From a virus: a stretch of DNA of 64,000 bases. The stretch is taken from IMG/VR virus record IMGVR_UViG_3300045996_002431, positions 1 to 64,000 of that record; one strand, 5' to 3'. The translations under genes and the position numbers were made by a program. This document shows, piece after piece, positions 1,305 through 49,800 of the stretch (position 1 is its first letter; each line of letters begins with the position of its first letter). Under the pieces are notes generated by a model, which was not told where the DNA came from, searched no databases, and was given only the letters and a program-made list of their open reading frames with translations.

Positions 1305-1381
1305 GTCTCAAGTAGTTCTACTGGTTGAACATCCCTTGATTTGATGGGAAGGTTGCGGGTTCGAGTCCCGTCTTGAGACCA
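1305..1381 (+). tRNA. tRNA-like RNA with an aberrant 10-nt anticodon loop (identity undetermined)
   Basis: Acceptor TCTCAAG/CTTGAGA, D arm GTTC/GAAC with GG, T arm GCGGG-TTCGAGT-CCCGT, followed by CCA. Anticodon stem TCCC/GGGA encloses TTGATTTGAT. Confidence 0.8.
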
Positions 1382-6889: not shown

Positions 6890-7079
6890 GGTTAGATTTT
6901 TTTTCACAAGTATATGGATTTTTTTCCTCAAGGTTGCGTTTTAGTAGAAAATAATCTCCATTTTTAACAAATTTAACTTTTATAGTAGAAAATAATCGCA
7001 TTTTTTGTCTTCAGCCGGGATTTTTCGAGACATTTGTTAATAGTTTTAACAGTACCTTAGTTAAAAGAGGTTAAATAAC

Positions 7080-7190
7080 TTGACTTTTCGCCGGTCTTGA
7101 GTTACTTTTACCTTAAAGCCGTACAACTGGTTTAGCTCGGATTTGGACTCCCTGCACAAGAATTAAGGCCCTCCGGGGCCTTTTTTCTTT
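7080..7190 (+). ncRNA. Candidate ~70-nt sRNA with its own promoter and terminator
   Basis: TTGAC 7080 plus TACTTTTA 7103-7110, no ATG downstream, then an intrinsic terminator at 7165-7190. Confidence 0.5.
7165..7190 (+). terminator. Intrinsic terminator
   Basis: AAGGCCC-TCCG-GGGCCTT followed by TTTTCTTT. Confidence 0.8.
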
Positions 7191-7988
7191 AATTCCGGTA
7201 ATTACCATCACTATCCCTCAGATCCCCGCTCAATGTCGGTTTTAAACGACAATCTTATTGCATTTAAGGTATTAAGTTATTGATTATTAGTCATTTACAA
7301 TAAGTATCTTAACTGAAAGCTTGGATATTTTGGTGTGGGGTACTGTAGCATGCTTCTAACCCCTCCGGCCTCCAAAAACCGAAAGCCAAACTGACAGAGA
7401 CCCCCAGTGGGGAGGGGGTATCGACTTTTAAGGCCTTGTTACTCAGTTACTTAATAACAATATACCCATAAACTACATTATGTTAAGTAGAACAGCAAGG
7501 CATTTAATTTCTTGGCAACAAGTTGTTAATCAGATAGATGAGCAGAAAGAACTAATGATCTAAGGTACGTTGCTGTTAGGCTATTTAGTTGAGAGTCAGA
7601 CAAATATATTTGTGTATAATAAACAATACCCCAACACCTAAACATCTAAGCTTTTTAGGTCTTTAGCGAATACCTTTAGGACCTGAGAAGCAAAATGTTT
7701 TTACTCATGCATAGTACTTTGCAATACCTAGTACCTGCTTATACCCTTTAATGTCCTTAGTCCTTCTTCTTCTCCTTGTCTCTTTATAGCTTGTGTATAT
7801 TGGTCTATAATATGAGTATAATTTGATGCGTTATTTGGGCCGGTTTTTTCCGCCGCTGGTATCTTAAATTTGATTTTTTGGTATGTTCATAACTTAATTT
7901 GCAAATATCATCTATGTTCAGAATCAAATAGTTATAAACCTAGGCTTCGCAAAGTTATTAACAATTTACAATTTTAACAATTTAATAC

Positions 7989-8020
7989 TTGACAAACCCT
8001 TTTTTATTGTCGTATATTTG
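7989..8020 (+). promoter_or_regulatory. Consensus Bacteroidota primary-sigma promoter driving the early operon
   Basis: TTG(ACA) at 7989, 21-nt spacer, TATATTTG at 8013-8020 (TAnnTTTG), AT-rich upstream DNA. Confidence 0.75.
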
Positions 8021-8102
8021 TACCATGATTAACAGAAAGTTTAAAACAATTCAAAACCCAAACACGTTTAAAGTAATATATAATAACTAAAAATTAAATA
8101 CC

Positions 8103-8498
8103 ATGAAATTAGATAACCAAACACTAGAGCGCCTTACAAGACTCATTCACTTCTCAAACGGTTTTAGTTATTCATTAGCTCTTAATAAGATATTTGAAGC
8201 AGGTGAACCGTTCTATTTTGTTTCAGTCCCTGAACATGAATGGAAGCGCGAATTTTCCCCGTTTATGCTTGAAACTTCAGAATTAATTAAGAACTATGTT
8301 GATAGTCACCAGTCAGAACTATTAAAACCTCAGAACGTTTTAGGCGCTTGGGTTTATAATGGGCTCTTATACCTCGATGTTAGCGAAGCTGTTCACCAGC
8401 GGCACAAAACCCTTGAGACGGTCTTAAAATTAGCCAAGAGCAGGAATCAATTGGCAATATTCGATCTATTAAATAACAGAACTATTAACATAGCTTAA
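8103..8498 (+). CDS. Putative SAM-lyase-like early protein
   Basis: LGAWVYNGLLYLDVSE...LAKSRNQLAIFDL. The G-x-W...acidic...Q-x-hydrophobic order parallels T3-type SAM lyases. By-eye similarity only. Confidence 0.4.
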   Translation: MKLDNQTLERLTRLIHFSNGFSYSLALNKIFEAGEPFYFVSVPEHEWKREFSPFMLETSELIKNYVDSHQSELLKPQNVLGAWVYNGLLYLDVSEAVHQRHKTLETVLKLAKSRNQLAIFDLLNNRTINIA

Positions 8499-18120: not shown

Positions 18121-19191
18121 ATGACCCAAGTAACCAACCGCTACAAGTACCCTCAGCCATTAGTTGATGCCGTCTCTCACGACGGCCACATCACTTCGGG
18201 CGACATTTCAGTAACAACATTAATCGATGCTCCTCAGATATTTTATTTGAGAAAGAAGCACAAGGTTGATATACAAACAGACGTATCAGATTTGATTTGG
18301 GCTCTTATCGGGACTGCCATTCATGGTATCCTGGAACGAGCAAATATCACCAGCCACAGACGCAACGCCTTAATGGAAGTTATCCAGTTGCTGAAAGAAT
18401 TCTATTACAATAACCGTGAAAAGGAGGACCTTAAGGATGAGGCTTCCCAGGCAGAAAGAGTTTTCAAGTGGTTACTAAAGTTCATGTTCAAACATTATCC
18501 CGAACTCGAGTCTCGATATGAATTTGAAACTCATGTTACTCTTGAGGTTAACGGATGGGTTGTTTCCGGCACTGTCGATTTATATGATAAGATTGACAAG
18601 AGGATCCAGGACTATAAAGTCACCAGCACGTACATGTATACAACTCCGGAGGCTAGGAAGAAGTGGAAGCTTCAGGTAAATACATATGCTTATATGCTTC
18701 GAAAGAAAGGATACGAGGTTCTTGGTGCCGACATCATTGGTATTTTCCGCGATTGGTCAAGAAAGAAAGTAGGAAAGCCTAATTATCCGCCTCTTCAGGT
18801 AATGACCATGGAGATAATGCTTCACAAACAAGAGGATCTTGAAAAGTGGATTCTTCATAGGGTTAAGCTTCATCAAAAGGCACACGAGGGAGATTTTCCG
18901 CCTTGTAGTGGCGAAGAACGATGGGCGGTTGCCGATCAGTATGCGGTCCTGCAGTATAAAGAAGGCAAGGCGATATCGGGAAGCATAGTTTCCGAACGAG
19001 GTCTTGCTGAGAAGTTCGTAAAAGAGAACCAGCACAAATACAAGAAGCCCCTAATCATTGAGCACCGACCATCTGAATGGCGCAAGTGTGAGAGTTATTG
19101 TTCAGTTTCGAAATTCTGCGATCAGTGGGCGGAAAGAAAAAAACAAACAAGTTCACAATTTGTTAATAACTCTTCCGGTTGGGAAGGGTAA
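18121..19191 (+). CDS. PD-(D/E)xK (Cas4/RecB-like) exonuclease
   Basis: GTAIH...SGTVDLYD...IQDYKVT...QVNTY, with C-terminal C...C-x-x-x-C-x5-C. Confidence 0.85.
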   Translation: MTQVTNRYKYPQPLVDAVSHDGHITSGDISVTTLIDAPQIFYLRKKHKVDIQTDVSDLIWALIGTAIHGILERANITSHRRNALMEVIQLLKEFYYNNREKEDLKDEASQAERVFKWLLKFMFKHYPELESRYEFETHVTLEVNGWVVSGTVDLYDKIDKRIQDYKVTSTYMYTTPEARKKWKLQVNTYAYMLRKKGYEVLGADIIGIFRDWSRKKVGKPNYPPLQVMTMEIMLHKQEDLEKWILHRVKLHQKAHEGDFPPCSGEERWAVADQYAVLQYKEGKAISGSIVSERGLAEKFVKENQHKYKKPLIIEHRPSEWRKCESYCSVSKFCDQWAERKKQTSSQFVNNSSGWEG

Positions 19192-19504: not shown

Positions 19505-20378
19505 TTTCCAAGAATTAAAAGAAGAATTGTTAGTAAAAGCAAAAGAAGCTAACGCCTGCTCTTCCGAATACAGGAGAGCGTATGGATCAGAAACCCAAGA
19601 ACAGTTATTAAAAGTAGTATACGATAATTTAAGTTGGTGTTTTGATCATAAAATTATTTCTGACGAATATTTTTCAAAATTCGATCAAGAAATTTTCCTA
19701 AAATCAGGCCTCGCAAATACAGGAGAATGTAATACTGGTTTTGCCAACGACGGATACGCCAACGCCGGAAACCGAAACGCCGGATACGCCAACGCCGGAA
19801 ACTACAACGCCGGAAACTACAACGCCGGATACGCCAACGCCGGAAACGACAACGCCGGAAACTACAACGCCGGAAACTACAACGCCGGAAACCGAAACGC
19901 CGGATACGCCAACGCCGGAAACGACAACGCCGGAAACGACAACGCCGGAAACGACAACGCCGGAAACTACAACGCCGGAAACTACAACGCCGGAAACTAC
20001 AACGCCGGAAACCGAAACGCCGGATACGCCAACGCCGGAAACGACAACGCCGGAGCCTTCAATACTATTCAATCTCCATACATGATGTTTAATAAGCCAT
20101 CTGACTGGACTTTTGAGAAATTCAGAGATTCAACAGCCTTCGGTCTTCTTAATTCAATAGACACAACTCTTTGGATCCCATCAGACAATATGAGTGATCA
20201 AGAAAAGAAATATCATCCATACCACGAAACGACTGGCGGTTACATTAAAAATATTCCTTTCAAAGAGGCTTTTACTAACCAATGGAATAATTGGTCAAAT
20301 TCTGCTAAACAATCATTTAAAGACCTGCCCAACTTTGATGCTGAAGTGTTTTTTAAAATAACCGGTGTAAAGATGTAA
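19497..20378 (+). CDS. N-x-G-x-x pentapeptide-repeat phage protein
   Basis: 20 NAGxx repeats followed by MFNKP...GGY....FKEAF..W...LPNFDAEVFFKITG. Confidence 0.85.
   Translation: MNNFQELKEELLVKAKEANACSSEYRRAYGSETQEQLLKVVYDNLSWCFDHKIISDEYFSKFDQEIFLKSGLANTGECNTGFANDGYANAGNRNAGYANAGNYNAGNYNAGYANAGNDNAGNYNAGNYNAGNRNAGYANAGNDNAGNDNAGNDNAGNYNAGNYNAGNYNAGNRNAGYANAGNDNAGAFNTIQSPYMMFNKPSDWTFEKFRDSTAFGLLNSIDTTLWIPSDNMSDQEKKYHPYHETTGGYIKNIPFKEAFTNQWNNWSNSAKQSFKDLPNFDAEVFFKITGVKM
19761..20060 (+). repeat. 15-bp tandem repeat, 20 units of AACGCCGGA+6 nt
   Basis: Invariant AACGCCGGA every 15 bp from 19761 to 20046. Confidence 0.95.
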
Positions 20379-20380
20379 TC

Positions 20381-20551
20381 ATGACAACTAGATTTGAAAT
20401 AATACAGTGGCTTCAGGAAAAGGAAAGAGAGGCCATGAAGAATAAGACTGACAACGCATGGAACGCGGACATGGAAGAAGTCCGTTATGAAGAAGGAAGA
20501 ATCGATCTCATAAATGAATTAATTGAAAAACTAGAAGAAGATGAACAATAA
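20381..20551 (+). CDS. 56-aa hypothetical protein (not in ORF track)
   Basis: MTTRFEIIQWLQEKER...KLEEDEQ* fills the gap and overlaps the next start. Confidence 0.65.
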   Translation: MTTRFEIIQWLQEKEREAMKNKTDNAWNADMEEVRYEEGRIDLINELIEKLEEDEQ

Positions 20552-21935
20552 CCTCAAACTACAACAACTCGAAATCGAGAATTTTAAAGGCATTGGCGAG
20601 TTTCGCCGCCTGGACATCAATGGACGATCATTTGTTATTATCGCAAAGAATGAGTCAGGTAAGTCATCACTGATTGATGCGATCATTAGTCCGGTAAATA
20701 AGAAAGTCGTTCCGTCTAAGCCAATCAAAAAAGGCGAGGAAAGAGCAACCATCAGAGAGGTCCTGGCTGGTGAGGTTAATGGAGAGCAACGCGAATATAC
20801 TCTTGACCTTCATTTCACACCATCTCAGCAGACGGGTAAATTAATCGTTTATAACGAGAAGGAAGAAAAGATCGCACGTCCGGGTCAGTTTCTCGATGAT
20901 ATCCTTGGCAACTGTTCGTTTGATGTTGAGGAGTTTCTTAGAGGAAGCAGAGCCGAAGATCGCGAACGTCGCCTGAAGTTATTACGTCAGCTTACAGGCA
21001 AGGAAAAAGAGCTTGATGAATTGGATCGTCAGAAGAAAGAAACCGTCTCCAAGCGCGAGGAAATGAGCCGGGAGATCAAAACTCTCGACGCTAACGTATA
21101 CTCGCATGGGATTACCGACGAGGAGTTTCAAAAGTACATGAATCCGCCCAAGGTTTCTCCCGAAGAAATTGAAAAGGAACTTAAGGACGTGCAGCCAAGG
21201 ATCGACACCTACAATAAGCAAAAGGAAGAGTTTGCTAAGATCCTTAACCAGGTTGCTAATCTTGAGTCAGCGTCTTCCGCGAGCGAAATCGTAATTAAGG
21301 AACAGGAAGAATTAATCAAGAACCTTAAAAATCAGATCGTAGCGGCGGAAAAACGAATCGAAACCAACCGCGACATCATCAAACAATCATCCGAAGCCAT
21401 CGCGACTCACAAGGTTCGTATCGCAAAAGCAGAAAAATGGTTTGAGGCTCAGAAACTTCCGGATATTTCCGAAATTACTGATCGATTAAATGAAACCAAC
21501 AAGCACATGAATACGTACAAACGTATAGTTGAGTTTCAGGAAAAGCAGCAGACTCTCTTCAAGAAAAAACAAGAATATGAGAACCTATCAACAAGCATCG
21601 ATGAAATTGACAGACGAAAGGCGGGAATTATTGCGAAATCGAACCTGCCTGTTGCCGGACTCACGTTTGACGAGAGTGGGATATATCTCAATGGCCTACC
21701 TCTCGAATCCGGACAGATCAACTCCGCAAAAATACTTGAGGTTGGTGAAGAAATATCGATGGCTCTCAACCCAGGCCTCAAAGTCTTATTTGTTAGAGAT
21801 GGATCTCTTTACGATTCGGAGAACCTTAAGCGTCTTGTATCTAAGGCAGAATCTAGGGGTTATCAAGTCATCATTGAGATTGTTGGAGACAATCAGGAAC
21901 TTGAAATAAAGTGGACTGAAGATTATTTTAAATAG
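20541..21935 (+). CDS. SbcC/Rad50-like coiled-coil ABC ATPase
   Basis: LEIENFKGI, Walker A-like AKNESGKSS, long coiled coil, degenerate Walker B VLFVRDGSLYD. Confidence 0.85.
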   Translation: MNNNLKLQQLEIENFKGIGEFRRLDINGRSFVIIAKNESGKSSLIDAIISPVNKKVVPSKPIKKGEERATIREVLAGEVNGEQREYTLDLHFTPSQQTGKLIVYNEKEEKIARPGQFLDDILGNCSFDVEEFLRGSRAEDRERRLKLLRQLTGKEKELDELDRQKKETVSKREEMSREIKTLDANVYSHGITDEEFQKYMNPPKVSPEEIEKELKDVQPRIDTYNKQKEEFAKILNQVANLESASSASEIVIKEQEELIKNLKNQIVAAEKRIETNRDIIKQSSEAIATHKVRIAKAEKWFEAQKLPDISEITDRLNETNKHMNTYKRIVEFQEKQQTLFKKKQEYENLSTSIDEIDRRKAGIIAKSNLPVAGLTFDESGIYLNGLPLESGQINSAKILEVGEEISMALNPGLKVLFVRDGSLYDSENLKRLVSKAESRGYQVIIEIVGDNQELEIKWTEDYFK

Positions 21936-21942
21936 CTAACGG

Positions 21943-21987
21943 TTGCATGTTGATCCGTGTGCAATGGAAGATAGCCTAGAACGGATC
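21943..21987 (+). ncRNA. H-type pseudoknot (RNA element 1)
   Basis: Stem TTGCAT/GTGCAA; loop GATCCGT pairs with ACGGATC at 21981-21987. Confidence 0.55.
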
Positions 21988-21999
21988 CCACATTAAAAG

Positions 22000-22086
22000 A
22001 CAGGGAAGGATATTGTACACGCGAATGGTAGTAGTCTACTGGGTGACGAGGTTCAATGCAAGTGCGGTAGTCGGCACACTCCCTGT
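22000..22086 (+). ncRNA. Structured RNA element 2
   Basis: Closing stem ACAGGGA/TCCCTGT; internal TTGTA/TGCAA, TGGTAG/CTACTG and GTGC/GCAC. Confidence 0.5.
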
Positions 22087-22094
22087 TTAAATAA

Positions 22095-22315
22095 GCACCT
22101 GTGGCGGAAATGGAAGACGCACTACCTTGAATGGTAACACAGAGACTCGCGGGTTTTACGCTGGCGAGAAGTCGAATACCATAATGCCTATCGCTGATCG
22201 AAAAGGAAGTTACCTCGAAAGAGATATTGTACAATAGATCGAAATGGAAAGCCAGTAGTTAGTACAGATAGGAGAGAAAGACTTGTATGGAGGTTCGAAT
22301 CCTTCCAGGTGCTCA
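22095..22315 (+). ncRNA. tRNA-Leu-like RNA with 151-nt variable-arm insertion and 6-nt anticodon loop (element 3)
   Basis: Acceptor GCACCTG/CAGGTGC; Leu-type D arm GGCGGAAATGGAAGACGC; TACC-TTGAAT-GGTA; T arm GGAGG-TTCGAAT-CCTTC. Confidence 0.75.
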
Positions 22316-22338
22316 AAAAATTAAGTTCTTTAAAATAG

Positions 22339-22476
22339 TGTCGCTAAGACGAAGTGAATACAGTGGCCTATAACGATCATAGATGTGGTTTTGGCTTATA
22401 ATCAAAACATCACTAAGGTGATTCGCACCCGGCAAGGTCGCTCCCCAACGAGCATTGCATTCACCTCTTAGCGACA
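22339..22476 (+). ncRNA. Structured RNA element 4 (long basal helix plus multibranch head)
   Basis: Perfect 11-bp TGTCGCTAAGA/TCTTAGCGACA, 11-of-12-bp GTGAATACAGTG/CATTGCATTCAC, and 4-5 internal hairpins. Confidence 0.7.
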
Positions 22477-22495
22477 ACCTTATTAAAAAAAAACC

Positions 22496-22942
22496 ATGAG
22501 TGACGCAAAATTATTTATCGTAATCGGGATCACGTTCTACGTGATTTGGATTCTAAGTTGGCTTTTTTCTATCTACAAGTGGACCCTTGACGATAAGAAA
22601 AACAAAATACCATACTATCGTTCTGAAGTTGGTATACTCTATGACATGTGGATGCTTGCAGTAACCGGATTGTTGATAATTTGTTTCGTATTCTTAAACA
22701 TTTTTTAGATGAAACCTGAGAATATTTTTCTTATCTTTCTGATCCTGGAGTTGAGTTATGTGATCACATTTATTTGGTCATACATATCATGGAATCGACA
22801 CAAAAGATTCGTTGATTACTTAACCTTCAGGCACCTTACACTTCTGTGGTTTCTTCTTGACATGATCCACGGAATTATATACACGATTGCTCTTGTTGCC
22901 GGGGCCTTCGCGTTACTCTTACAGGCAGTTAGGATTATATGA
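22496..22942 (+). CDS. Two small 2-TM membrane proteins (22496-22708, 22709-22942)
   Basis: Hydrophobic hairpins, abutting. Confidence 0.65.
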
Positions 22943-24597
22943 GACAAATAGAATTTCCGGACCGTTACACAATTAAAATGAATAAGGCCATTTGGTCTGA
23001 GCAGGAACTTTCTCTTGCGGCGTGTTATAGTTTTAAGGTTTCCGCCGAGGAAAACTTCACTTCAGTGATCTGTAACATTAAAAGAACATCCAGGCAATCA
23101 GTTGAGAATTTTATCTCGCTGGCTTTTCAGGCCCTTGTTCAAAGTCCTCTTCGGGAGAACGAAAGGAAAACTACTTTCGCTCACATCGACAAAATGTACC
23201 TTGATATGATTACTGCCAGGGACGGGATCATGAGTGACAGATTGAAGTATTGGTCCATGCTCCGAGAATATCAGAAAGAGTCTGTTATGCTCATGACCGG
23301 AAGGAAACACAACCTTCTTTCACTTCAGCAGGGTATGGGAAAGTCAATCACCGCAGCAACCGTCTCTCGTGCTCTTAAAATCCGTCGCACCCTCATCATC
23401 TGTATTCCTGTAGCCAAATGGAATTGGCAAGATGACCTTTGTACAAAATTCGGATACAATCAACTGTATTTCTCGATCCTTGACAGCAAGAAATCCAAAA
23501 CAATTAAGGCCCTGTCGCCATACCATGAGCGGTTCGTGATCACGCATTACGACGCCATCCCCAAGCACATGGATTACATTCTTTCTGCACCAATTGATCA
23601 TATCATAATAGATGAGTCGCAATTCATTAAAAACACAAATACTGCCAGGTATAAGCTTATTTCACGAATCGTTGAAGCCAATCCCCAGGCCAAGATCTCA
23701 TTCCTCTCCGGAACTCCAATCAAAAATAGAGTCGATGATCTCTTTGCGTACTTCAAGCTCGCCGGACATGAACTCGGCAAGAACAGAGCGAAGTTTATCA
23801 GGGAGTATGCGAAGACCGGCCAGGGCAGGAACCTCGACAAAGTAGTAGGGGCAAGAAACATGGATCAGTTATCCATGAACATGGCGAACTTCATGATCCG
23901 TAAAACCAAGAAGGACTGCCCGGAAATTCCTGACAAAACTTACATGAAGGTAGTAATGGAACTCGGAGATTACCGGGAAGAGTACGATCGCATCATGCTC
24001 GAGCTTCTTCAGTCAAAGGATCGAGGCGCAATCAATGGCCATATCATCTCAATGAACAGGATCTTTGCAATGGCAAAGGTTAAACCGGCCACAGAGATGA
24101 TTGAGGACCTTATAGACAAAGGTGAGAAGGTTGTGGTATTCACGTCCTACAAAGATCCGATACGCGAACTGGAGGCTTATTTTGGCGACAGGTGCGTTAA
24201 AGTTGACGGAGACGTTGACCACTCAGAGAGATTCGTTCGCGTGAAGAAATTTGTGAACGATCCTAAATGCATGGTCTTCCTTGGCAACATGATCGCAGCC
24301 GGGACCTCACTTAATCTTACAGTTTCATCAGAAGTAATATTCCTAAACTACCCATTCACGGCCACCGAGATCGATCAGGCTGTTGATAGAACTCACCGCA
24401 TCGGACAAGAGAATAAAGTTAACGTTTATTTTCTTACCTGTAAAGATACAATTGACGAAAATATTTATAACTTAGTCGCATCGAAGCAGGGGGAAATAAA
24501 TCAGATCATCGACGGGGGAGACGGCCTAGATTACGGATCCGACGTCAAAGAGAAACTTTATCAAATGTTCACCAATCAACCAGCAATATGTCAGTAG
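22939..24597 (+). CDS. SNF2-family (SF2) helicase
   Basis: LREYQ, QGMGKS, IIDESQ, LSGTP, QAVDRTHRIGQ. Confidence 0.92.
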   Translation: MRQIEFPDRYTIKMNKAIWSEQELSLAACYSFKVSAEENFTSVICNIKRTSRQSVENFISLAFQALVQSPLRENERKTTFAHIDKMYLDMITARDGIMSDRLKYWSMLREYQKESVMLMTGRKHNLLSLQQGMGKSITAATVSRALKIRRTLIICIPVAKWNWQDDLCTKFGYNQLYFSILDSKKSKTIKALSPYHERFVITHYDAIPKHMDYILSAPIDHIIIDESQFIKNTNTARYKLISRIVEANPQAKISFLSGTPIKNRVDDLFAYFKLAGHELGKNRAKFIREYAKTGQGRNLDKVVGARNMDQLSMNMANFMIRKTKKDCPEIPDKTYMKVVMELGDYREEYDRIMLELLQSKDRGAINGHIISMNRIFAMAKVKPATEMIEDLIDKGEKVVVFTSYKDPIRELEAYFGDRCVKVDGDVDHSERFVRVKKFVNDPKCMVFLGNMIAAGTSLNLTVSSEVIFLNYPFTATEIDQAVDRTHRIGQENKVNVYFLTCKDTIDENIYNLVASKQGEINQIIDGGDGLDYGSDVKEKLYQMFTNQPAICQ

Positions 24598-25423: not shown

Positions 25424-26566
25424 ATGAGCAAAACCACAATAATTTTCGAAAAAGATCAGATCATCAATGACCTGATAAGAATCTACAACATCGTTCCATC
25501 GAAGCCACTTGTGCCGATACACGACTACTACCTGTTTCATGTCGTGGATATGCACACATGTCACATCTATGCCTCTGACGCTACAATGACGATCAGGGCC
25601 ACGGCACAGGTTCAGGCAGATGCTGATAATTTCAGATTCTGTATTCCGGCAAAACTCTTCACCGAGACAGTGAAACTTCTTCACGAGCCAACCTTCACCC
25701 TGACAGTAAAAGATAACGTCTGTCAGCTAAAATCAGGAAAGTCTAAGTTTAAACTACCTACGGAGAATCCCGACTTCTTTGTAATGATCGAAGAAGGTGC
25801 TCAGAAATCTGAAGTGTCAATTCTTGGACTTCAGTTTAAAGATGCCTTCCGCGTAGCTTCATCGTTCATCAATAAGAAACAGGACACCGCGCTAAAGAAT
25901 GTAAACCTTTCAATCAGGGATAATAAACTGGTTGTGATCGGTGGTCAGACAGTTTGTTTATCAAAGAATAACATAGCGCCACACTCACTCACTTCATTCG
26001 AGGAAACATCTATTCCGCTGGGAACGGCCAAGATTCTTCAGACGCTGTTTCAGGATAAGGATATTGTAGATGTTTATCACGACGGACGTACCGCGATGGT
26101 GAGTAATAGTTCTCTTAAGTTGATCTTTACTCTATTCGTAGGAAAGTATCCAAACACATCTACCCTTTTCAGCAGGGATAAATGTCAATACTTCAGGATC
26201 TCAACTTCATATCTACTTGAGGCTGTAAAGCGAGTTGAGTTGTATTCAGAGGAAGGTTCGTATCAATCGATATTTACTATTTCCGCCGAGAATTTATCAA
26301 TTACGACTGACGCACCGGAATCCGGGAAGGCAGCAGAAGAACATCTTGAGATTATTTCTCCACAGGAATTTACAGTGGCTCTTCCTTCGAATCAATTGAT
26401 CGAGGTATTGAGTTCTCTCACGGACCAGGACACTCTTAATACAGAGTCGATAAGGTTCTATATGCCCGACACTCCTAAGAAACCAATCATCATAACCGAT
26501 GACAGTGATTCGCCAAGCAGGGAGTTTTTAATTTCACCAATGATGATAAATAAACCAAAACCATGA
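25424..26566 (+). CDS. dnaN: DNA polymerase III beta sliding clamp homolog
   Basis: 380 aa. IVPSKPLVPI..YLF, IPAKLF.E.VK.L, SKFKLP, GKYPN, C-terminal LISPM. Confidence 0.85.
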   Translation: MSKTTIIFEKDQIINDLIRIYNIVPSKPLVPIHDYYLFHVVDMHTCHIYASDATMTIRATAQVQADADNFRFCIPAKLFTETVKLLHEPTFTLTVKDNVCQLKSGKSKFKLPTENPDFFVMIEEGAQKSEVSILGLQFKDAFRVASSFINKKQDTALKNVNLSIRDNKLVVIGGQTVCLSKNNIAPHSLTSFEETSIPLGTAKILQTLFQDKDIVDVYHDGRTAMVSNSSLKLIFTLFVGKYPNTSTLFSRDKCQYFRISTSYLLEAVKRVELYSEEGSYQSIFTISAENLSITTDAPESGKAAEEHLEIISPQEFTVALPSNQLIEVLSSLTDQDTLNTESIRFYMPDTPKKPIIITDDSDSPSREFLISPMMINKPKP

Positions 26567-40823: not shown

Positions 40824-43800
40824 CTACTCGTCCACTGTTTCGAGATCCGAGAATAGTTGTTTTTCCACCTTTTTATCAAAATTGGAGATCTTGGACTTAA
40901 TGGTGGATTCAAATTCTGAATCAGTCATCTCGGACAGTCTCTCGAAATTGTTCTCCATGTAATCAAGAAGCATTGAGCCGCGCATCTTATTGGCGTCGTA
41001 TCTTTGTTTGGCGTCCAGGGGAATCGTTTCGATCCTTACTCCGCCATCGTCGTGAATGTTAACCTTTATCTTCCGCTTGTTGTAACCAAATGGCAGATAG
41101 TGTTTGTCTACAAACATTTTGTAATACTCGTCATCTCCTGTTTTCTGATATCCGGCTATACCGAACTTCTCTTTTATTGGACGACCAAGCACGTCTATCT
41201 TGGACTCATTACCGTAGAATTGCTGAGAAACTACGTCTACTATAGGCATGTCTTTAATCACATCGTCCATAAATGACGTAGAGGCTATCCTGTCCTGATC
41301 GAAGAGTGCTTTGATGTCGGTGTTTGTTTGTGTTGCAATGTTTGGTACGAGTAGGGTTTTAGCTATTTGAGCTGATTTTTTACTAACGAATTCGTTAAAT
41401 TTCCCGCCCTTATCTCCACCGCCTTTGATCATTTCATCGTACCCCTCTTCAACTGCCTTTAAAACCTCATTTACACCCTTCATGGAGGCCTGATCGTTAA
41501 CGAGTCCCAGGTAGTTTATAAATACGTTTGAGGTCACGGAGGCTCCCATGTCTTCAGGTATACTTCCGTTATTCTCTATTCTCAGGTCATTAAGTAGTCC
41601 CGGGATAGCGAAGATGGTCATCCATGGTGTGTACTGATATTTAAGAAGTGGAACTCCGCCAACGTACACGGTGTATGGTTGATCGTATCCAGCCTGCTCG
41701 CGAGCCATTGCGTCAGTGTAGCTCTTTCCGTTCTTTCCGGTTATATAGAAGAATGGCTTATCGTCATCATCTCTTAGACCCTCCTGGAGGGCAATAAGAG
41801 CGGCAGTTATCGCGGTATGAGTGATGGCGCTTTGTACGTGGCTCATGTATTGATCTCGTGTCATCTTCTCTCCGCCACCAAATTGGCCACGAACTCCGTA
41901 TCCGCCATGAATTAGCGGGGATGCTATTCTTACCAGGTTCAGGATCGGTGCATTCTGAATAAGGTTATTGGCCACATTCATAGGAACCTTCAAGAACGGA
42001 ATAAACACCCGGGTAGCTGGAACTTTATTTAAGAATCCTTGTATACCCTGGTAAAACCTTCCCATTGTTCCGGTAGGATCGTTCTGAAGAAGGGCCTCTT
42101 TAGACCATTCAATAGCTTCGGACATCACCTCTCCATCTCTTTGGTTTACTATTTGACGATATATCTCTCTTTGGTATTCCGCCTTTATTGTATTCCTTCT
42201 TTTAGCATCCTTGCCCGACAATTCTGCCTGAAGATCGAAATCTTCGCCGTAATAGTTTTTTAGAGACTCTTCTGCTTTCGCAGTAGCCGCATCAATCGAT
42301 TCTTTAGTGTAGCCAAGATCTTTGTTAACCGACTCCATTACTTGATCATGAACTACTTTTTCGCCCATGTCTTGCAGGGCCTTAACTCTTTTGTTGTATA
42401 GGATTTGTTTTGCTTTAGACTCGGTTAATCCAACTGTTCCGAAAGCGTCTTCAGCAGACAACGCCCTTGTTGGCAGGTACGCGTACCTGTATAGTGTTTT
42501 ACCAAGGAAGCTGTCGGATTTTGAAAGTTGCTCAAGGGATGATTGAGCTACCGGCTTCCCGGTGAATGCGTTCGTTCCTGTAAGCATCACTCCCTTTGCT
42601 TCATTTAACATGAAGTTAGCGACATTCTTAGTGTACGAGGCGTAAGCAGCACCCGACTTTAAGCCGCCCTTCTGAAGCATCATCTGAACAGGTTTATTGA
42701 GATATGTTTGAATCGCGTTGAATAAAACAAAGTTTTTCAGATGAGTTTCGTATCCTGAAAGGATCGAGTTATAGTAAATATCCGTGCCGAGCTCCCATGA
42801 TCCGGTAGGTGTGTATTTACGCATCTCATTATACAAGTCTCTCATCGCTTTGTCTTTCATGACTGAATTTTCAGTCTGAGATGCAACCTTTATAGATAAT
42901 TCCCTTATTCTATCCTGAGCAGCGGTGTCAGCTTCCTTGAGTCCGATCGCTTCCATGAAGGCTGGTTTTAGCTTTTCCCCCTCGAAAGTTCCGTTTAAGA
43001 CATCATTTACGATTCTGTCTTCAGCGACCTTATTATTCTTTTTTATTGTAGAGATTAACCCCTTATTTTTAATGGACTTTAATTTGGATCTTACTTGTTT
43101 CCGGGCCTGGTTTTCAAATTCCGAACTAAAGGTGTCAACTATGTGTTGAGCGTACCCGTTGGTTAAACCAAGCTCTGATATTAATCTTTTTTTGATCTTA
43201 TCCTTAGACTCCTGAGATGTGTTGCTGTCGGCGAGAATGGATCTTATTGCGTCGGATTGTTCTTTTACCTTGTCTTTAGCCTGAGATGCGATAAGGGAAT
43301 CAACCTCCCTTGGAGACGCATTCTTATATGCTTCTTTGATGGCCTGTGATACCTTATTGTTAAGGTTTCCCCACGCCTCCTGAAGTTCCTTCCCGTATAC
43401 TTCGACACCGGCGGATTGTAGAGCGGATTGCATTTTCCTTGACCATTGATTATACGTCAAGTATCCCTCATCAATGAAAGTCTCACCAACCTCTTGTATT
43501 GATTTTAGTTTTTCGGCATCAATCGGAGTTGAATTAGGTTCTTCAAACGAGAACTTTTCCCCCGGCTTGTTTTTACCGAACTTCTTTTTTAATTCCTCTA
43601 GTTTTGAGTTTCGCTTTTCGCGAATTGCATTAAGGTCTTTGCTTGATTTGGTGCCAACTGGACCATTGTATTTTGGTTGTGAGTACGCCGAGTTTGCGGC
43701 TTTTGATGAGGCTTTTGATTTAGCATCATCAACTACGCTTTTAGCTTCGGACGCGAATTTATTTATTCTCTGAGATGCTGATTCGCTGGCTGTGCCAAGT

Positions 43801-46800
43801 TTTTTCTCCAGTATTTTGGACTGAACATTCGCTATGGCAGCAACTTGCTTTTCAGCAAATATTTGAGGATTCATCTTATACATGAAGTTGTAGTAAGAGA
43901 TCCTTCTTCCGGATTGTTCTCCGAGACTAGCAATATTGTCTATAATCTCAGCCTGTAGGTTTTTATTCAACTCGGGGTCTATACCCTTCTGCTCTAATGA
44001 ATATGCAGCAGATAAGGCGTTGTCGAGTATGGCAGCTTGAATGTCTCCATCCATCTTGTCTCCATTACTCATGGCGAATTTAACGGCATCGCTAATGTTC
44101 TCGAATGCGTTCACTATTTCGGCACCAAGCCCCCTGGCCTCTTCTTGAGAGTATCTTTTTGAATTGAGGGCTTTGTTGTAATCTCCACCAAACCTTTTAG
44201 TGATAGCGGCAATGAGTGTTCTTGGAGCGTCGTCATTATTGAATACCCTCTCAATAACCGCTCTTACCCTGTCTTCGACCGGAATACGATCGATAGCGAT
44301 AATTTTGTCTTTAGTCTCAACGGAATGTCTAACCATCTTTGATTGACGGTTCTCCTCCTCCTTGATTTGTTGTTCCTGGGTTTTTTGTTCAGTTTTTGAG
44401 CCCTGTTCATTAGTCATGAACTTTTGTTTTTCCTGAACAGGCTTTTTTGCCGACTTCATAATGTCGGCTATCATTTTGTCGGAAAGACCTTTTCGTTTAA
44501 AGTATTTAACGACGTCTTCTTCTGAGGCGCCTTCCTCTAATTTTTTGGCTACTGTTTCTCTGACTTTTCTTCCTGATTCTGACTCGGGGTCAAATTGGAA
44601 TTTTCCTCGTTTTTCATCTCCTGAAGACCTTTCAGATACGCCTCTCCCGCCTTCTTGCTCCACTCCTCCGCTTCCGATAAATTCTTGAAGCCGTTTACTG
44701 TCTCCGATGAGTCCTGCGTAGAGGCTTTCGACTGGGAATTTTGATCCTTTTTCGAGTTCTCCTGATTTGTATTGTCGTTCGATTTCATTTTTAATGTTCT
44801 CCTTCGCCTTTTCGAAGTCTACTTTTATCTTTTTTACGTCTTCTAATGAAATAGGTTTCGGTTCACCCTTCTTAAAATTGTTGTTAAAATAATGGAAGGA
44901 TACGTTTTTATTGTCCTTGAAGTGTTCAGAAAGTTCTATAATAGTCTTAAGGGCCTTCCTATTTATCTCAGTAGCAATATCATAAGGCACTGTTCTGCCG
45001 ACCTTTTTTGCTCTTTCAATAACCCCACCCTCTTTGCTGGTGAATGAATTTACCGGATCACGAAATGTGAACATAATATCAACACGCTTACCGTGATCGA
45101 TGGCTTCTTGGATGTCGGCTACGGCACGAGGGAAGTTTGATAAATTTGTGTCAACCGTGATTTGGTTGTTTAATTTCATGTTCTCGGCAGCGCGAGACTT
45201 CCCTACACCGGATCCACCTGCAGTGAATATAACTGAATTAGTCTTTCCTTCAGGAGCCTCTTTCTGAAGCTCTTCCTTGTACATTTTGCTTACAAATTCC
45301 CTTGCTGGTATCTGAGTTGCATTTGAAAGAAGTTCCGGATTGTTGTTGTACTCGGGAGAAAACACACGCGCACGATCGGTGTCAAAAATGTTTCCATTCT
45401 TTTTGAGATACTCTGTCTTTCTTTCCTCGTAATTCTCTTCCAGGTCTTTTTGCATTTTATCCTGGATGGTTTTTTCCGCCGGAGTAAGAGAGTTTTCGTA
45501 AGACTTCTTTCCTTGAACAACCCAATCAGGTAATAGCCCAATTTTCTGTTCAGCGAAAGGGCGGTTTTTTGCATCAAGATAACCTTCCTCGCCCTTCTTG
45601 ATAATAGCCCCTTCTGAATTCCTCATGTGAGGACCGAAGTTTACGAAAGAGTTTTGGCCACGAGTTTCAGTCGTCATGGCCCTCCTGGCTGATTCTGAGT
45701 ACATTTTCGAATGCACGTTCCATGCATTTTCCTCGCCTATCGGCCCAAATCCATTGCCAAGTTTGCCATGACCGAAAGCGTCGTGAACTCCGCGAAACAC
45801 ATCATTAACAAGCAGTGGCTTGCCATTAATATCCTTGTGACCTGAATCTCTCAATAACGGATTCTCATCGCGCTGAGAGTCTGAAATCTTGTTATTGCCG
45901 AATTCTTTATCAGTGGATAAAACAAAGAGATGTTTATTATCTCTTAGGTCCTTAAGCATCGCTTTGCTGTCAGCGTAAGGCTCGCCTTCGCCTTCGAATA
46001 TTTCAAACTTATACCCAGCTCCTGTTAGTGTTTTGTACTGATCAATGGTTTCTGTGGCCATTGCCTCATAAGCAGCCTTCACCTCGGGATTCTGAGGATC
46101 ATGCTTCATTGCTATAAAAGCATCGGCGATTTTCTTTGAATTCTCATTATCCAGGCCTTTAACCGTCTCGGGAATTGAGTAATCTTTTATTCTTTTTGAA
46201 TTAGCGTAAGATCTTGCAACGTCTGCTATTTCGTTGTCGTGTTGGAATTTAATATCCTTGCGTTTTGCGTTTGGCTTAAAGTTCCTGCTTTCCTCATTAC
46301 TGTATTTTACAACGTTGCCAACCATTTTATTGTATGGTTCGGCTTTTAATGCCTCGGTTGTTTGAGCCCTTAGCGCTTTGGTTTTTCCGATATTCCACTC
46401 GGCAACCGTTACTTTGAATCCTTTTTCCGCAGCAAGCTTGGATATATATCCTACCTGCTTGTTAGGATCAAATGCCTTTCCGGGATGGTCTTTTTCAAAC
46501 ATAGCCTTTGCTTCATCGTAAAGATTAAGCGGGTCTCTGTTTATTGGATAAACCTCTCCTTTCGGAATCCTGACTATGTGGCCGTAATTACTTGGGACGT
46601 TCGACTCCTGTAGATCAGGACGGGTATAGTACATTGAAATATTCACCCCTGGCTGTTCGTCCCTTCCGGTAGCTTGTGTGTTTGATCCGAATTTATTTGG
46701 ATCTATTTTCTTTAATTCTTTTGACGAGTAGTGGTAGAATACATAATTACCCTTGTCGTCTTCAGTCATTTGCTTACGCAGTCCTGATTCCTCTACAAGA

Positions 46801-49800
46801 TCTCTTTTTTCGATCTGCTGCTTCTGATCACCTTGCTTTTCTGAAGTTTTGATCTCTTTATTTTTAGCCAGGTCTTCCGCCGCAAGTTCTACGAATTTGG
46901 TAAACGAAGTGTTCTCGTCGAACTTAAAATCATTCATTCCAAATGCGTTCTTAATAGTATCCCACATGTCCTTCATGGCCTGTGTAAATGCATTTTGATT
47001 AGCCATGTCAGAAAATACGTCTACGCCTTTCTTTCCGAGAGCCTGCACAAACGACTCTTCTGCTATATCATTATCTGATAAATGAGAATAGTTTGGGTTA
47101 GATTTCGCTTCCTTGTAGAAATCTGACTGCCTGGAAAGTTCGAGCATCTTGTCGTATGCTCCTGGGTTTTTTTCAAGAAGAACATCGGTCCATATGTGTC
47201 CGAACTCATGAACCGGGGTGTCCTTTTTAACCTTCGAAGGATTGAGATATATTTTATTGGTTTTCGGATCGTAGAAACCATTTGAATTAATAGCGTTTTC
47301 ATGTTCAGAAGCCTGAGCGGCCTGATTGAACTCTTCCTGATTAAAAGAAACATCTGTCCCTTTAAATACCTTTCCTAATCTATTTTTAACGGCAAGATTC
47401 CAGGCTTCATTACCCGGCTTTAATACCGATGAGGTTTGTTGTTTTTGTTGTTCGTAGTCGTCCTGTTTTTTCAGAGCCTCTACTTCTGCATCCTCAAGAC
47501 CTAAATCAACAGGCTCTTTCACTAGCGCTTTGTCGCGAACAATTTTCATGTTCTTGCCTTTTCCGCCGGAGAAATCTACCATTGAGGTTCCGTTATTCAG
47601 CTTGTATCTGATGATTCCTTTCTTAATGGATCCCTCTTCAACATAAGACACTTCAGAACCATCTTTGAGGTCAGCAATTTCTTTGTCAGTTAGAAATTCA
47701 AACTCGGGGGCCTTCTGCTCTTCGGGCTTATCTTTCTTTTCTGTATTCTCAGGTTTCTTCTCGCCAACTTTTTCTGTTTCCTCTTTAACAGGATCAGCAG
47801 TTTCGAACTCTTGGAACGCCTTAAGCTGCGCGTTTACTTCTGATAACTTAGCTTCGTCTCTGAATTTGAAATTCTCATCAAGCCTTTTTACAGACTCGTC
47901 GAGAGACGCCTTTTCTCTTAGTAAAGGGATGACGCGAGACTTTGATTCGTCTGAGTAACTAGATGGAATTTTATCGTAAAGTTCTTTTGTTCTTTCAAGT
48001 GTGGCTGAAACTCTATTGTACGCTTCGTTTGACAACTTCCCGCCATCTTTCATCTCGGAAAGAATTTTCTGAGACTCGTCGTAATTTTTCAACAACTCAA
48101 GAGTAGCCCCGTCCGTAATGGCTGACGAGCTTGATGATTGGGCTATCGCTGTGGCGGGGGCTGTTAAAGCAACAGAAAGAATGGTGTTTGACAGGAATTC
48201 GCTTTTTGATATCTCCTCATCCATCTTTCTATAAGACGGATCTCTTCTTGCTGAAGAGTTAGCGAGTATATTCACAGCCTTTTCGGCAATTGATTCAAGA
48301 TTCTCCTGACCGGCTTCTTTTAGAGCCTCTTTTGAAGAGGTTCCTATAACACTTACTGCCTCGGAAATAAATTTATTGAATGTTTCTTTTTTAGTTAAAG
48401 ATATCATTCCCTGTGAGGCATATCTTTTCGCCAAATCCTGCAACGATCCTTTGATTGTTGTTGGATTTAATAAAGCCTCGTTTGGAGACAGAGCGGCCAT
48501 TATTGATGTAGCTGCGCTTGCTGCTAATCCATACGCAGAAGCTTCTTTATCTGACATCCCATGAGCAACAGCATCTTTCTTGTAATCATCATACGTAAAT
48601 ATGAATTGAGAGGATACAGCAGCGGCCTCGTCTGCGTATTTTCCCAGCTTCGCTGTTTCGCCTAATTGACGAAGGCGACCAACCGGAGCCAGCATGATAG
48701 CCATGTCGGTTCCGACTTTTGCAAGATTTGGACCAAGGCGATACATTCTCATGTTGCCGTTTTCATCAAAAAGATCAGTCTCGGAAACCGTGGCCTTTAC
48801 AGTCGATTCAGTGAAACTGTTCAATTTGTCAATGATTCTGTCGTTTACAGAGTATCCTGAATTGGCAACATCGCCAATGTCTTTAAGTGTTTCAAGTAGT
48901 CCGGCTCCGTTATCAACAACGGTATTCCAAACGTTTGACAACGACTCTCTACCCTGATACAGCTTTGCTCTGCCGAATGTTCCCGACTTTATGTCTTCCG
49001 GGGTTACATCTTTGAAGTCTCCGGCGATAAGTTCTTCTTGTCTCTTGATGTCGGCTTGATCCTTCATCTTTTTGAGAACAGAAGGATTGTCTTTGATTAT
49101 TTTAGCCTGAGCTCTTAAAACTTCGTCGTACTGTTTTTCAATATCGGAATAGGAGTCCAAAGCGTCTTTGTACTTAGGATCCGCGTCGAGTTTTTCTTTC
49201 TGTTGAGATAGGGAATCCCATTTACTTTTAAGTTCTGTTTTCTTCTCGTCCGATAGTGCGTTCGGATCACCATATGATTCAATCTCGCTGGCAAGTTGGT
49301 TCATTTGACCAACTACTTTACTGTATTCTTTTATTCTGTATTCGTGGCCCCTGGCTTTAGCTACTTCGGCATCATTCTTCGCCATACTAGCATTGAAGTT
49401 AAGAGCCTCCTGAAATTCGTTATGTCTTTCTTTATCAGAAAGATCAAAACCATAATTCATCAACTTCTCGTACTTTTCATTGAATTTCTCAGGATTATTA
49501 TCTTTCAGGTGCAGTAAATACTTTCCGTAAGCAGCCCCTTCAGGACCGTATGCTTTGCCGCCAGCTAATCTCGCTGTTGCGTTAGATACAACCTGGATGT
49601 CCGACTTCATTATGTCGGGATCTTTTGAAGAAAGTTTTTCACGAGATGTTTGCTCGTGCTGTTTTTCTTGCCAAGAATCTATTTTATCCTTAAACGCCTT
49701 CGATGCCCGGTATTGACCACCAAGCATATTAGTTGTTTCGGATGGCATTGATGAGTTTGTCTTGTCAATGGTGTAATCCATCCTCGACATATCGGAAGCC

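Follow-up and report, generated by a model that had tools for sequence, protein, structure and literature searches.

A tRNA-Leu-framed, non-decoding RNA gene with a 151-nt domain in an ORF-free block of a phage replication operon

The ORF-free block and the RNA gene within it

The window analyzed here is a 64,000-nucleotide (nt) stretch of DNA, positions 1 to 64,000 of IMG/VR record IMGVR_UViG_3300045996_002431, a 75,216-bp virus record with direct terminal repeats. In its replication operon, between an SbcC-like ATPase gene and two small membrane-protein open reading frames (ORFs), lies a 560-nt block, which an earlier note, made from the letters alone, had described as an array of four independently folding RNAs (elements 1 to 4) inside the replication genes. 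One of the four, element 3, is a solid RNA gene, and the only solid one in the block: it specifies a 219-nt non-decoding RNA that has the frame of a leucine transfer RNA (tRNA-Leu) and carries a 151-nt domain at the position of the variable arm. The support for element 3 is this tRNA anatomy, not folding energy. The genes around the block are arranged as follows, with ORF lengths in amino acids (aa).

18121-19191, + strand: PD-(D/E)XK nuclease gene
between the PD-(D/E)XK nuclease and SbcC-like genes, + strand: pentapeptide-repeat protein gene
20541-21935, + strand: SbcC-like ATPase gene, directly 5' of the ORF-free block
21936-22495, + strand: ORF-free accessory block, 560 nt, between the SbcC-like gene and the two small membrane-protein ORFs
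22496-22708, + strand: small membrane-protein ORF of 70 aa, without family, directly 3' of the block
22709-22942, + strand: small membrane-protein ORF of 77 aa, without family, preceding the SNF2 helicase gene
22939-24597, + strand: SNF2 helicase gene
25424-26566, + strand: beta sliding clamp gene

From about 8.1 to 31.5 kb of the window, every gene is on the + strand (8103-31572), and in these approximately 23 kb, positions 21936-22495 form the sole gap of at least 120 nt without a + strand ORF of at least 50 aa, which bears out the description of the gap as free of any credible + strand ORF. Small ORFs inside the gap had no family matches, and comparison of the block with 14 relatives' loci by tblastx gave chance matches only, with no remnant of a coding gene, which argues against a decayed protein gene. 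Neither promoter nor terminator matches were seen on the + strand inside the block. A GGA-rich sponge for CsrA was also considered and rejected, GGA occurring 10 times in the block against 10.2 expected, with no enrichment.

The gene for the tRNA-Leu-framed RNA is supported by ARAGORN run with its intron option, by the matches of its D arm and by comparison with a class of similar viral loci. Its parts are listed below.

22095-22313, + strand: element 3, the tRNA-Leu-framed non-decoding RNA gene, 219 nt
22095-22101 / 22306-22312, + strand: acceptor stem GCACCTG/CAGGTGC, 7/7 Watson-Crick pairs, read from the sequence
22102, + strand: U8, read from the sequence
22104-22120, + strand: Leu-type D arm GCG / GAAATGGAAGA / CGC, with a 3-bp stem and with A14, G18, G19 and A21 present
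22122-22137, + strand: anticodon-arm remnant CTACC-TTGAAT-GGTAA, with four pairs, one C.A mismatch and a 6-nt loop
22138-22288, + strand: 151-nt purine-rich domain at the variable-arm position, with predicted helices
22146-22168, + strand: predicted hairpin in the 151-nt domain
22169-73/22280-84, + strand: predicted helix AAGTC/GACTT
22187-92/22267-72, + strand: predicted helix CCTATC/GATAGG
22214-22223, + strand: predicted GAAA-capped hairpin
22225-22236: 12-nt palindrome TATTGTACAATA, inside the 151-nt domain
22289-22305, + strand: canonical T arm GGAGG-TTCGAAT-CCTTC, with one G.U pair
22313, + strand: discriminator U73, with no CCA encoded

The frame is intact in all 15 of its base pairs (acceptor, D and T stems), and the conserved nucleotides of the elbow, which the D and T arms build, are complete, comprising U8, A14, G18G19, A21 and GTTCGAATC, with a T arm of the GGAGG-TTCGAATC-CTTC type; the single G.U pair of the T arm marks the + strand as the RNA strand. 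Element 3 is an exact match to U8 plus the Leu-type D arm (GGCGGAAnTGGnAGACGC), and its 19-nt D-arm stretch recurs exactly in 120 or more bacterial genomes of many phyla, where the tRNA calls made by ARAGORN at 29 of the sites are tRNA-Leu in all cases but one (28/29). The counterpart of segment 22122-22137 in genuine tRNA-Leu genes with the same D arm is, by alignment, their anticodon arm. With the intron option, ARAGORN calls a tRNA at 22095-22314, which its default setting misses, and intron-option calls numbered 1 in 40 dinucleotide shuffles of the 64-kb window. The identity attached to this call, 'tRNA-Thr(TGT) with a 126-nt intron', is an artefact, the body of the RNA being Leu-type and the anticodon hairpin closing locally. 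Because that hairpin closes before the extra sequence begins, the insert lies at the variable-arm position and is not an anticodon-loop intron; with a 6-nt anticodon-like loop and 151 nt at the variable-arm position, element 3 is thus not a normal decoder. A fold constrained to the tRNA frame reaches -54.8 kcal/mol, compared with -57.1 kcal/mol for the minimum free energy (MFE) structure, a difference of 2.3.

A scan of the block against Rfam 15, at the gathering threshold and at E<=10, revealed no matching family; at E<=10, it returned five low-scoring chance matches (four eukaryotic small nucleolar or long non-coding RNA models and the bacterial serC leader), in agreement with the earlier note, in which no element could be matched to an Rfam family by eye. 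The tRNA model RF00005 matches element 3 locally and in the T arm only (22288-22305; 12 bits vs a gathering score of 29), and no whole-cloverleaf tRNA match was obtained at E<10 in the block. Several known kinds of RNA were considered and set aside. A group I intron gave no match at E<10 (RF00028), and the anticodon hairpin is closed upstream of the insert; the group I introns known to us are about 200 nt or longer, and the 151-nt insert is shorter. A transfer-messenger RNA, which is marked by the alanine identity pair G3.U70, a reduced D arm, a reading frame for the tag and pseudoknots, does not fit, since element 3 has A3-U70 and a full D arm, ARAGORN finds no such RNA and RF00023 has no match. 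The large ornate RNAs associated with phages (ROOL, GOLLD) and the self-cleaving ribozymes in Rfam had no covariance-model match in the block.

A recurrent tRNA-Leu frame in viruses and the relatives of the phage

A pattern scan of IMG/VR for a Leu-type D arm followed, after 150-180 nt, by a T loop identified at least 108 viral loci. Class members were recognized by 7/7 pairing between the 7-mer 5' of the D arm and the 7-mer three bases past the T-loop motif, with more than 100 nt between the arms. Among the matches listed, pairing in this acceptor register was found in 42 of 108 and in shifted registers in 0 of 108; element 3 shows the same arrangement, with GCACCTG/CAGGTGC pairing 7/7 around an insert of more than 100 nt. 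Again among the matches listed, all 42 carry T at position 8, and at position 73 there are 37 with A and two with T; once two loci that are merely tandem tRNAs are set apart, the remainder represent about 22 distinct genes of 198-227 nt. Most class members are solitary and sit in tightly fitting ORF-free gaps between phage genes, and none has an Rfam family.

One subfamily was aligned. The alignment, A4, comprises nine sequences of RNAs of about 200 nt (L187, L189, L196, L223, L194, L244, L254, L271 and L204) and displays compensatory changes in the acceptor stem, in the T stem and in a long-range helix, AGTCNN/NNGACT. By eye, two more helices cross this long-range helix, which indicates that the inserts are pseudoknotted structured RNAs; conserved insert motifs are GAAAAT-ATTAA and GACTAACA. 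A group I intron reading of this A/B subfamily was rejected, given that the 'S-element-like' GATATAG does not covary with GACT, and the upstream AGTCNN strand does.

Element 3 resembles the class members in its frame, register, U8, overall length (198-227 nt in the class) and siting in an ORF-free gap between phage genes, and differs from them in being flanked by extra non-coding sequence. A motif A[GC]AAG[TC] is located at nt 70-75 in the A/B subfamily, with AGAAGT at nt 73 in element 3, and this shared position hints at distant homology of the inserts. Element 3 could not be made to accommodate the pseudoknot helices of the subfamily, and the fit produced by MAFFT was unconvincing. Scans with the AGAAGTC motif or with the exact D loop recovered L204 and L267 only, whose inserts are unlike that of element 3.

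Members of the class were also encountered one gene upstream of an SNF2 helicase gene in an unrelated phage group (SNF2 25-30% identical), within a recombination and replication module (L201:6257-6456; L203:1520-1700; L202:7652-7832, - strand). A position upstream of an SNF2 helicase may be recurrent for the class.

The relatives of the phage were defined as 14 loci of the same phage group, reached through SNF2 homologues at 33-42% identity; closer SNF2 homologues (P0002-P0007) are 57-70% identical. The gene order of PD-(D/E)XK nuclease, SbcC-like protein, SNF2 helicase and clamp is kept in the relatives, and in four distant ones (L012, L014, L017 and L021) the SbcC-like and SNF2 genes abut. 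Conservation of the intergenic block, which the earlier note had made a test of its reading, was not found among these 14 distant loci: blastn and nhmmer searches of the block against them gave chance matches only, and no Leu-type D arm is present in five whole relative genomes. Wider searches were equally negative, with no match of the block in 50,697 phage records (blastn in a sensitive distant mode), nothing from a related-locus search with the SbcC-like protein, nothing from a scan for the exact 24-mer spanning the T arm and acceptor, and nothing useful from genome and metagenome scans with the SNF2 alignment. Since the SbcC-like and SNF2 genes abut in four relatives and no match to the block was found in relatives, the block together with the two small ORFs appears to be a lineage-specific insertion at a variable junction.

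The same observations could be taken to mean that element 3 is a decay product, a captured tRNA-Leu gene that was disrupted by inserted or expanded sequence and is now drifting amid junk spacer. The absence of the block from relatives, an insert with no detectable conservation and poor folding energy, a crippled anticodon loop and U73 are all compatible with such an origin. Yet the frame pairs and conserved elbow nucleotides are fully preserved, the architecture recurs in at least 42 viral loci with covariation in one subfamily, and dense phage genomes rarely keep 560 nt of junk, this being the only such gap in 23 kb. We consider decay highly improbable.

Several unusual tRNA genes were also observed. 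In a tRNA gene of the window (1306-1380, + strand; Rfam 43 bits), the anticodon stem is 4 bp long and the loop has 10 nt, TTGATTTGAT, a direct repeat of TTGAT; ARAGORN reads this gene either as Asn(att) or, with a 3-nt 'intron', as Gln(ttg). A tRNA of a distant relative (L011:93-167) apparently also has a 10-nt anticodon loop, and loops of such aberrant form may be a recurrent trait of the phage group. Oversized tRNA-like genes of 106-134 nt are present at L014:3266-3371, L063:576-687 and L011:174-290, in the same phage group, and at L241:2362-2495; they have canonical acceptor, D and T arms and expanded anticodon or variable regions, and none has a Leu-type frame. Downstream of the L014 gene, about 290 nt without ORFs end in a terminator-like hairpin and a T8 run (to 3668). 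In L012 (2340-2640), a Bacteroidota-type promoter word (TTTG ... TACATTTG) precedes an ORF-free leader of about 250 nt that finishes, immediately ahead of the PD-(D/E)XK nuclease gene, with a terminator-like hairpin (CCCC...GGGG TTTT). This leader may be an attenuator or a small RNA, and the promoter word hints at a Bacteroidota host for the phage group.

Elements 1, 2 and 4

The remaining elements of the block are the following.

21943-21987, + strand: element 1, hairpin GATCCGT/ACGGATC, possibly an H-type pseudoknot, 7 nt past the stop codon of the SbcC-like gene
22000-22086, + strand: element 2, 87-nt Y-shaped fold with the 7-bp stem ACAGGGA/TCCCTGT, sharing GATATTGTACA with element 3
22339-22476, no strand assigned: element 4, 138-nt multibranch stem-loop closed by a perfect stem of 11 bp, its end 19 nt ahead of the start codon ATG of the 70-aa ORF

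The geometry that had been proposed for the block stands: the four closing stems lie where the earlier note placed them, the MFE structure of the whole 560 nt gives the same partition into four domains, and A/U-rich spacers separate the elements. The word said to be repeated in elements 2 and 3 is there as well (at 22009 and 22223), although it is 11 nt long (GATATTGTACA) and not 10. In the comparison with shuffled sequence, which the earlier note had named as a check, the folds fared less evenly: that of element 4 is better, and those of elements 1, 2 and 3 and of the whole block are within chance. Folding z-scores, obtained by comparison with shuffled sequences, were -1.5 for the whole block, -1.4 for element 3 and -1.74 for element 2 (equalled by nine of 200 shuffles), all on the + strand; element 1 scored -0.80 on the + strand and -2.59 on the - strand, and element 4 scored -3.55 and -3.89, respectively. 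In a sliding-window scan of the + strand block, the window of element 4 alone stands out (z -2.5, about 18th of 1551). Perfect 7-bp inverted repeats are common, numbering 13, compared with 6.0 expected in shuffles of the block; a stem of 11 bp, as in element 4, is a rarity, with 0.02 expected in shuffles. Elements 1 and 2 are indistinguishable from chance.

Neither tRNA features nor Rfam matches were found for elements 1, 2 and 4. With a covariance model of element 4 (R1), no match was obtained in the loci of the relatives, in five whole genomes of relatives or in 22 loci of the class, and an exact scan of IMG/VR for the closing stem of this element found none either. A Bacteroidota-type promoter on the - strand was considered for element 4 and rejected, as there is a lone -7 box and the -33 box is absent. 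Possible identities of element 4 are a further stable RNA, a 5' leader with a protective or regulatory function, and a palindrome at the DNA level.

The original proposal for the block, four functional small RNAs of about 45, 87, 220 and 138 nt cut at the A/U-rich spacers and forming a non-coding RNA system, for instance of decoys, has to be weighed against these results. The four closed domains of the whole-block MFE structure agree with it, as does the clear folding outlier that is element 4, and words recur between elements (GATATTGTACA; ATGGAA three times vs 0.26 expected, an excess that reflects D-loop-like words). Adjacent small RNAs that are processed and have a tRNA-like member also have a precedent in the rnaIII-rnaI-rna1 array of phage T5, one of whose three RNAs is tRNA-Leu-framed. 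However, elements 1 and 2 do not exceed chance, element 4 favors neither strand, elements 1, 2 and 4 have no homologues in relatives or beside class members, and most class members are solitary in tight gaps. A set of four functional RNAs is, on this balance, unlikely. What survives of the processed cassette is a non-coding block with a tRNA fold inside it, whereas chance-level elements 1 and 2 and an element 4 with neither strand preference nor homologue do not sustain the rest.

A more elaborate version would make the 560-nt block a multi-RNA cassette for host takeover or counter-defence, in which the tRNA-Leu scaffold bears a 151-nt payload, element 2 is docked onto it through the 9-bp complement TATTGTACA / TGTACAATA (22011-19 / 22228-36), element 4 is a further stable RNA, and all of them together titrate a host factor directed at tRNA (nuclease, modification enzyme or sensor of the elbow). 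We regard this as very unlikely.

A different possibility is that the block acts as DNA, with element 4 as a long imperfect palindrome and TATTGTACAATA as a site for protein binding, recombination or replication. The two strands of element 4 are matched in stability, and the two defects in its helix, which appear as mismatches in one strand, are G.U pairs in the other; the 12-nt palindrome is present, and the location is among replication genes. On the other hand, the block contains no iterons and no DnaA-box matches, its G+C content is higher than that of the flanks and not AT-rich, element 3 is clearly a strand-specific RNA, and a better candidate for an origin is the 1.1-kb gap at 7002-8102, which is AT-rich and has ORFs on neither strand. 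We regard a DNA-level element as highly improbable.

Other regions of the window deserve brief mention. The gap at 7002-8102 has no ORF of at least 50 aa on either strand and lies at the switch from - strand to + strand genes; the G+C content drops to 24-30% near 7900-8200, and two of the three DnaA-box-like words of the window, the total of which is below chance, are in or beside it. This region is a candidate origin or early promoter region. On the - strand, an ORF of 3089 aa (40824-50093) lies beside one of 1459 aa (52627-57006), and several large ORFs on this strand have no PHROG match, which points to a very divergent structural module. A G+C peak of 0.59 at 19750-20050 falls within the pentapeptide-repeat gene, with the tandem word TGTCGTTTCCGGCG on the - strand.

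Proposed role of element 3 and comparison with known RNAs

With a probability of roughly 0.6, we interpret the block as a lineage-specific non-coding insertion, the functional core of which would be element 3, a member of the tRNA-Leu-framed class with an insert of its own. Its transcription, processing, stability and role we infer as follows. Element 3 would be transcribed together with the flanking + strand early genes and excised by host tRNA-processing enzymes, because the parts that they recognize are intact: RNase P would cut at G22095, and the 3' end would be produced by a 3' endonuclease and the CCA-adding enzyme after U22313. The RNA would then persist as a stable non-decoding RNA, with the tRNA frame serving as a scaffold for the processing and stability of the 151-nt domain. 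Candidate roles for that domain are a mimic or decoy for tRNA-directed host factors and a scaffolded functional RNA. As for the decoys of host defence proteins or anticodon nucleases invoked in the earlier note, their function was pure inference. Excision would split the operon mRNA as a side effect. Instead of being RNA genes in their own right, the structures that flank the cut may form ends with a protective or regulatory function, foremost among them element 4, which lies just 5' of the next ORF.

The splitting of the mRNA might instead be the main purpose, with element 3 chiefly an RNase P/Z cleavage signal between the SbcC-like and the membrane-protein/SNF2 mRNAs and the released RNA having no role. 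In favor of such mRNA punctuation, element 3 is embedded in a co-directional operon with no internal + strand promoter or terminator match, stable structures lie on either side of the cut sites, and the class member of L201, L202 and L203 is likewise one gene upstream of an SNF2 helicase. But a 75-nt tRNA, or a minimal acceptor/T helix, would suffice for cleavage, so that the 151-nt domain and the conserved pseudoknotted inserts of the class argue for a role of the RNA, and relatives do without any element at the SbcC-like/SNF2 junction. Punctuation as the main function is distinctly unlikely.

Several observations weigh against a functional, class-related element 3 as the core of the block. 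The 151-nt domain has no detected conservation or covariation, the relatives compared being distant ones (SNF2 33-42%); by itself it folds no better than shuffles (z -0.44), and in the sliding-window scan the folding of the element 3 interior is poorer than expected for its composition. At position 73, element 3 has U, against the A that is the norm in the class. BLAST comparison of the insert with the 22 distinct class members detected no similarity, and the 6-nt motif at the same position is the sole link of the insert to the other members. Finally, element 4 folds slightly better on the - strand, and the roles offered for elements 1, 2 and 4 are guesses.

If element 3 is placed within its class, it adds a large, U73-bearing variant in a replication operon, and no functional evidence. 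Stable tRNA-shaped RNAs of phages T4 and T5 have long been on record, with their function still annotated as unknown, and the locus described here, together with at least 42 similar ones, makes the leucine-tRNA frame a recurrent chassis in uncultivated phages, bearing inserts that are large, diverse, sometimes pseudoknotted and without an Rfam family. The leucine frame may have been chosen because neither the anticodon nor the variable arm is read by leucyl-tRNA synthetase (LeuRS). Candidate roles for these RNAs are a decoy for tRNA-targeting defences, a carrier and a processing signal, and to establish which of them applies would fill a long-standing gap in phage biology.

Compared with class II tRNA-Leu (RF00005), element 3 shares the exact D arm, with its 3-bp stem and long D loop, the acceptor and T arms and the presence of an extra domain at the variable-arm position. 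It differs in the anticodon loop (6 nt vs 7 in bacterial tRNA-Leu), in the size of the variable domain (151 nt vs about 13-21) and in position 73 (U vs A). The LeuRS of Escherichia coli requires A73 and the elbow and can dispense with both the anticodon arm and the variable arm (PMC9976931). Element 3, having U73 where that enzyme requires A73, is probably not charged with leucine.

Oversized tRNA genes that are found by intron-tolerant predictors only are also described in Lak megaphages, which infect Bacteroidota, as 'enigmatic introns' (bioRxiv 10.1101/356790; PMC6784885), and that set includes a tRNA-Thr(TGT) call similar to the one that ARAGORN gave for element 3. Unlike in the Lak megaphage introns, the anticodon hairpin of element 3 closes before the insert, and no splicing mechanism is evident. 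In engineered tRNA scaffolds for recombinant RNA, a foreign RNA domain is reportedly processed correctly and stabilized in bacteria by the tRNA frame; these constructs are said to be artificial, with the cargo replacing the anticodon arm, and the insert of element 3 is at the variable-arm position. Species 1 and species 2 of phage T4 (rnaC and rnaD) are small stable RNAs that are co-transcribed and processed with tRNAs and whose function is unexplained. We know of no Leu-type frame in these two RNAs, and, to our knowledge, their site is a tRNA operon, whereas element 3 is in a replication operon.

The closest counterpart is T5 RNA1 (rna1, T5s03; NC_005859 30501-30644), annotated as 'tRNA-like stable RNA with unknown functions'. 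The T5 array of rnaIII, rnaI and rna1 consists of three stable RNAs in contiguous ORF-free DNA and is located within a large tRNA cluster; element 3 is also within an ORF-free array and stands alone inside the replication operon. T5 RNA1 is 144 nt long with an insert of about 80 nt, compared with 219 nt and a 151-nt domain plus an anticodon-like hairpin in element 3; it is annotated as a stable RNA, whereas element 3 is known from its sequence, and the two have no sequence similarity outside the frame. Within the frame, the agreement is close. Both RNAs are of the tRNA-Leu type, T-G-CCG-GAATTGGTAGA-CGG in T5 RNA1 and T-G-GCG-GAAATGGAAGA-CGC in element 3, the D stem of the former being compensated (GCCGGAATTGGTAGACGG), and both combine a paired acceptor stem and a canonical T arm with a large insert between the D and T arms. 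To call the block an undescribed system, as had been done at the outset, was thus too strong: T5 RNA1 has the same frame, and the kind of RNA to which element 3 belongs therefore has an experimentally observed member.

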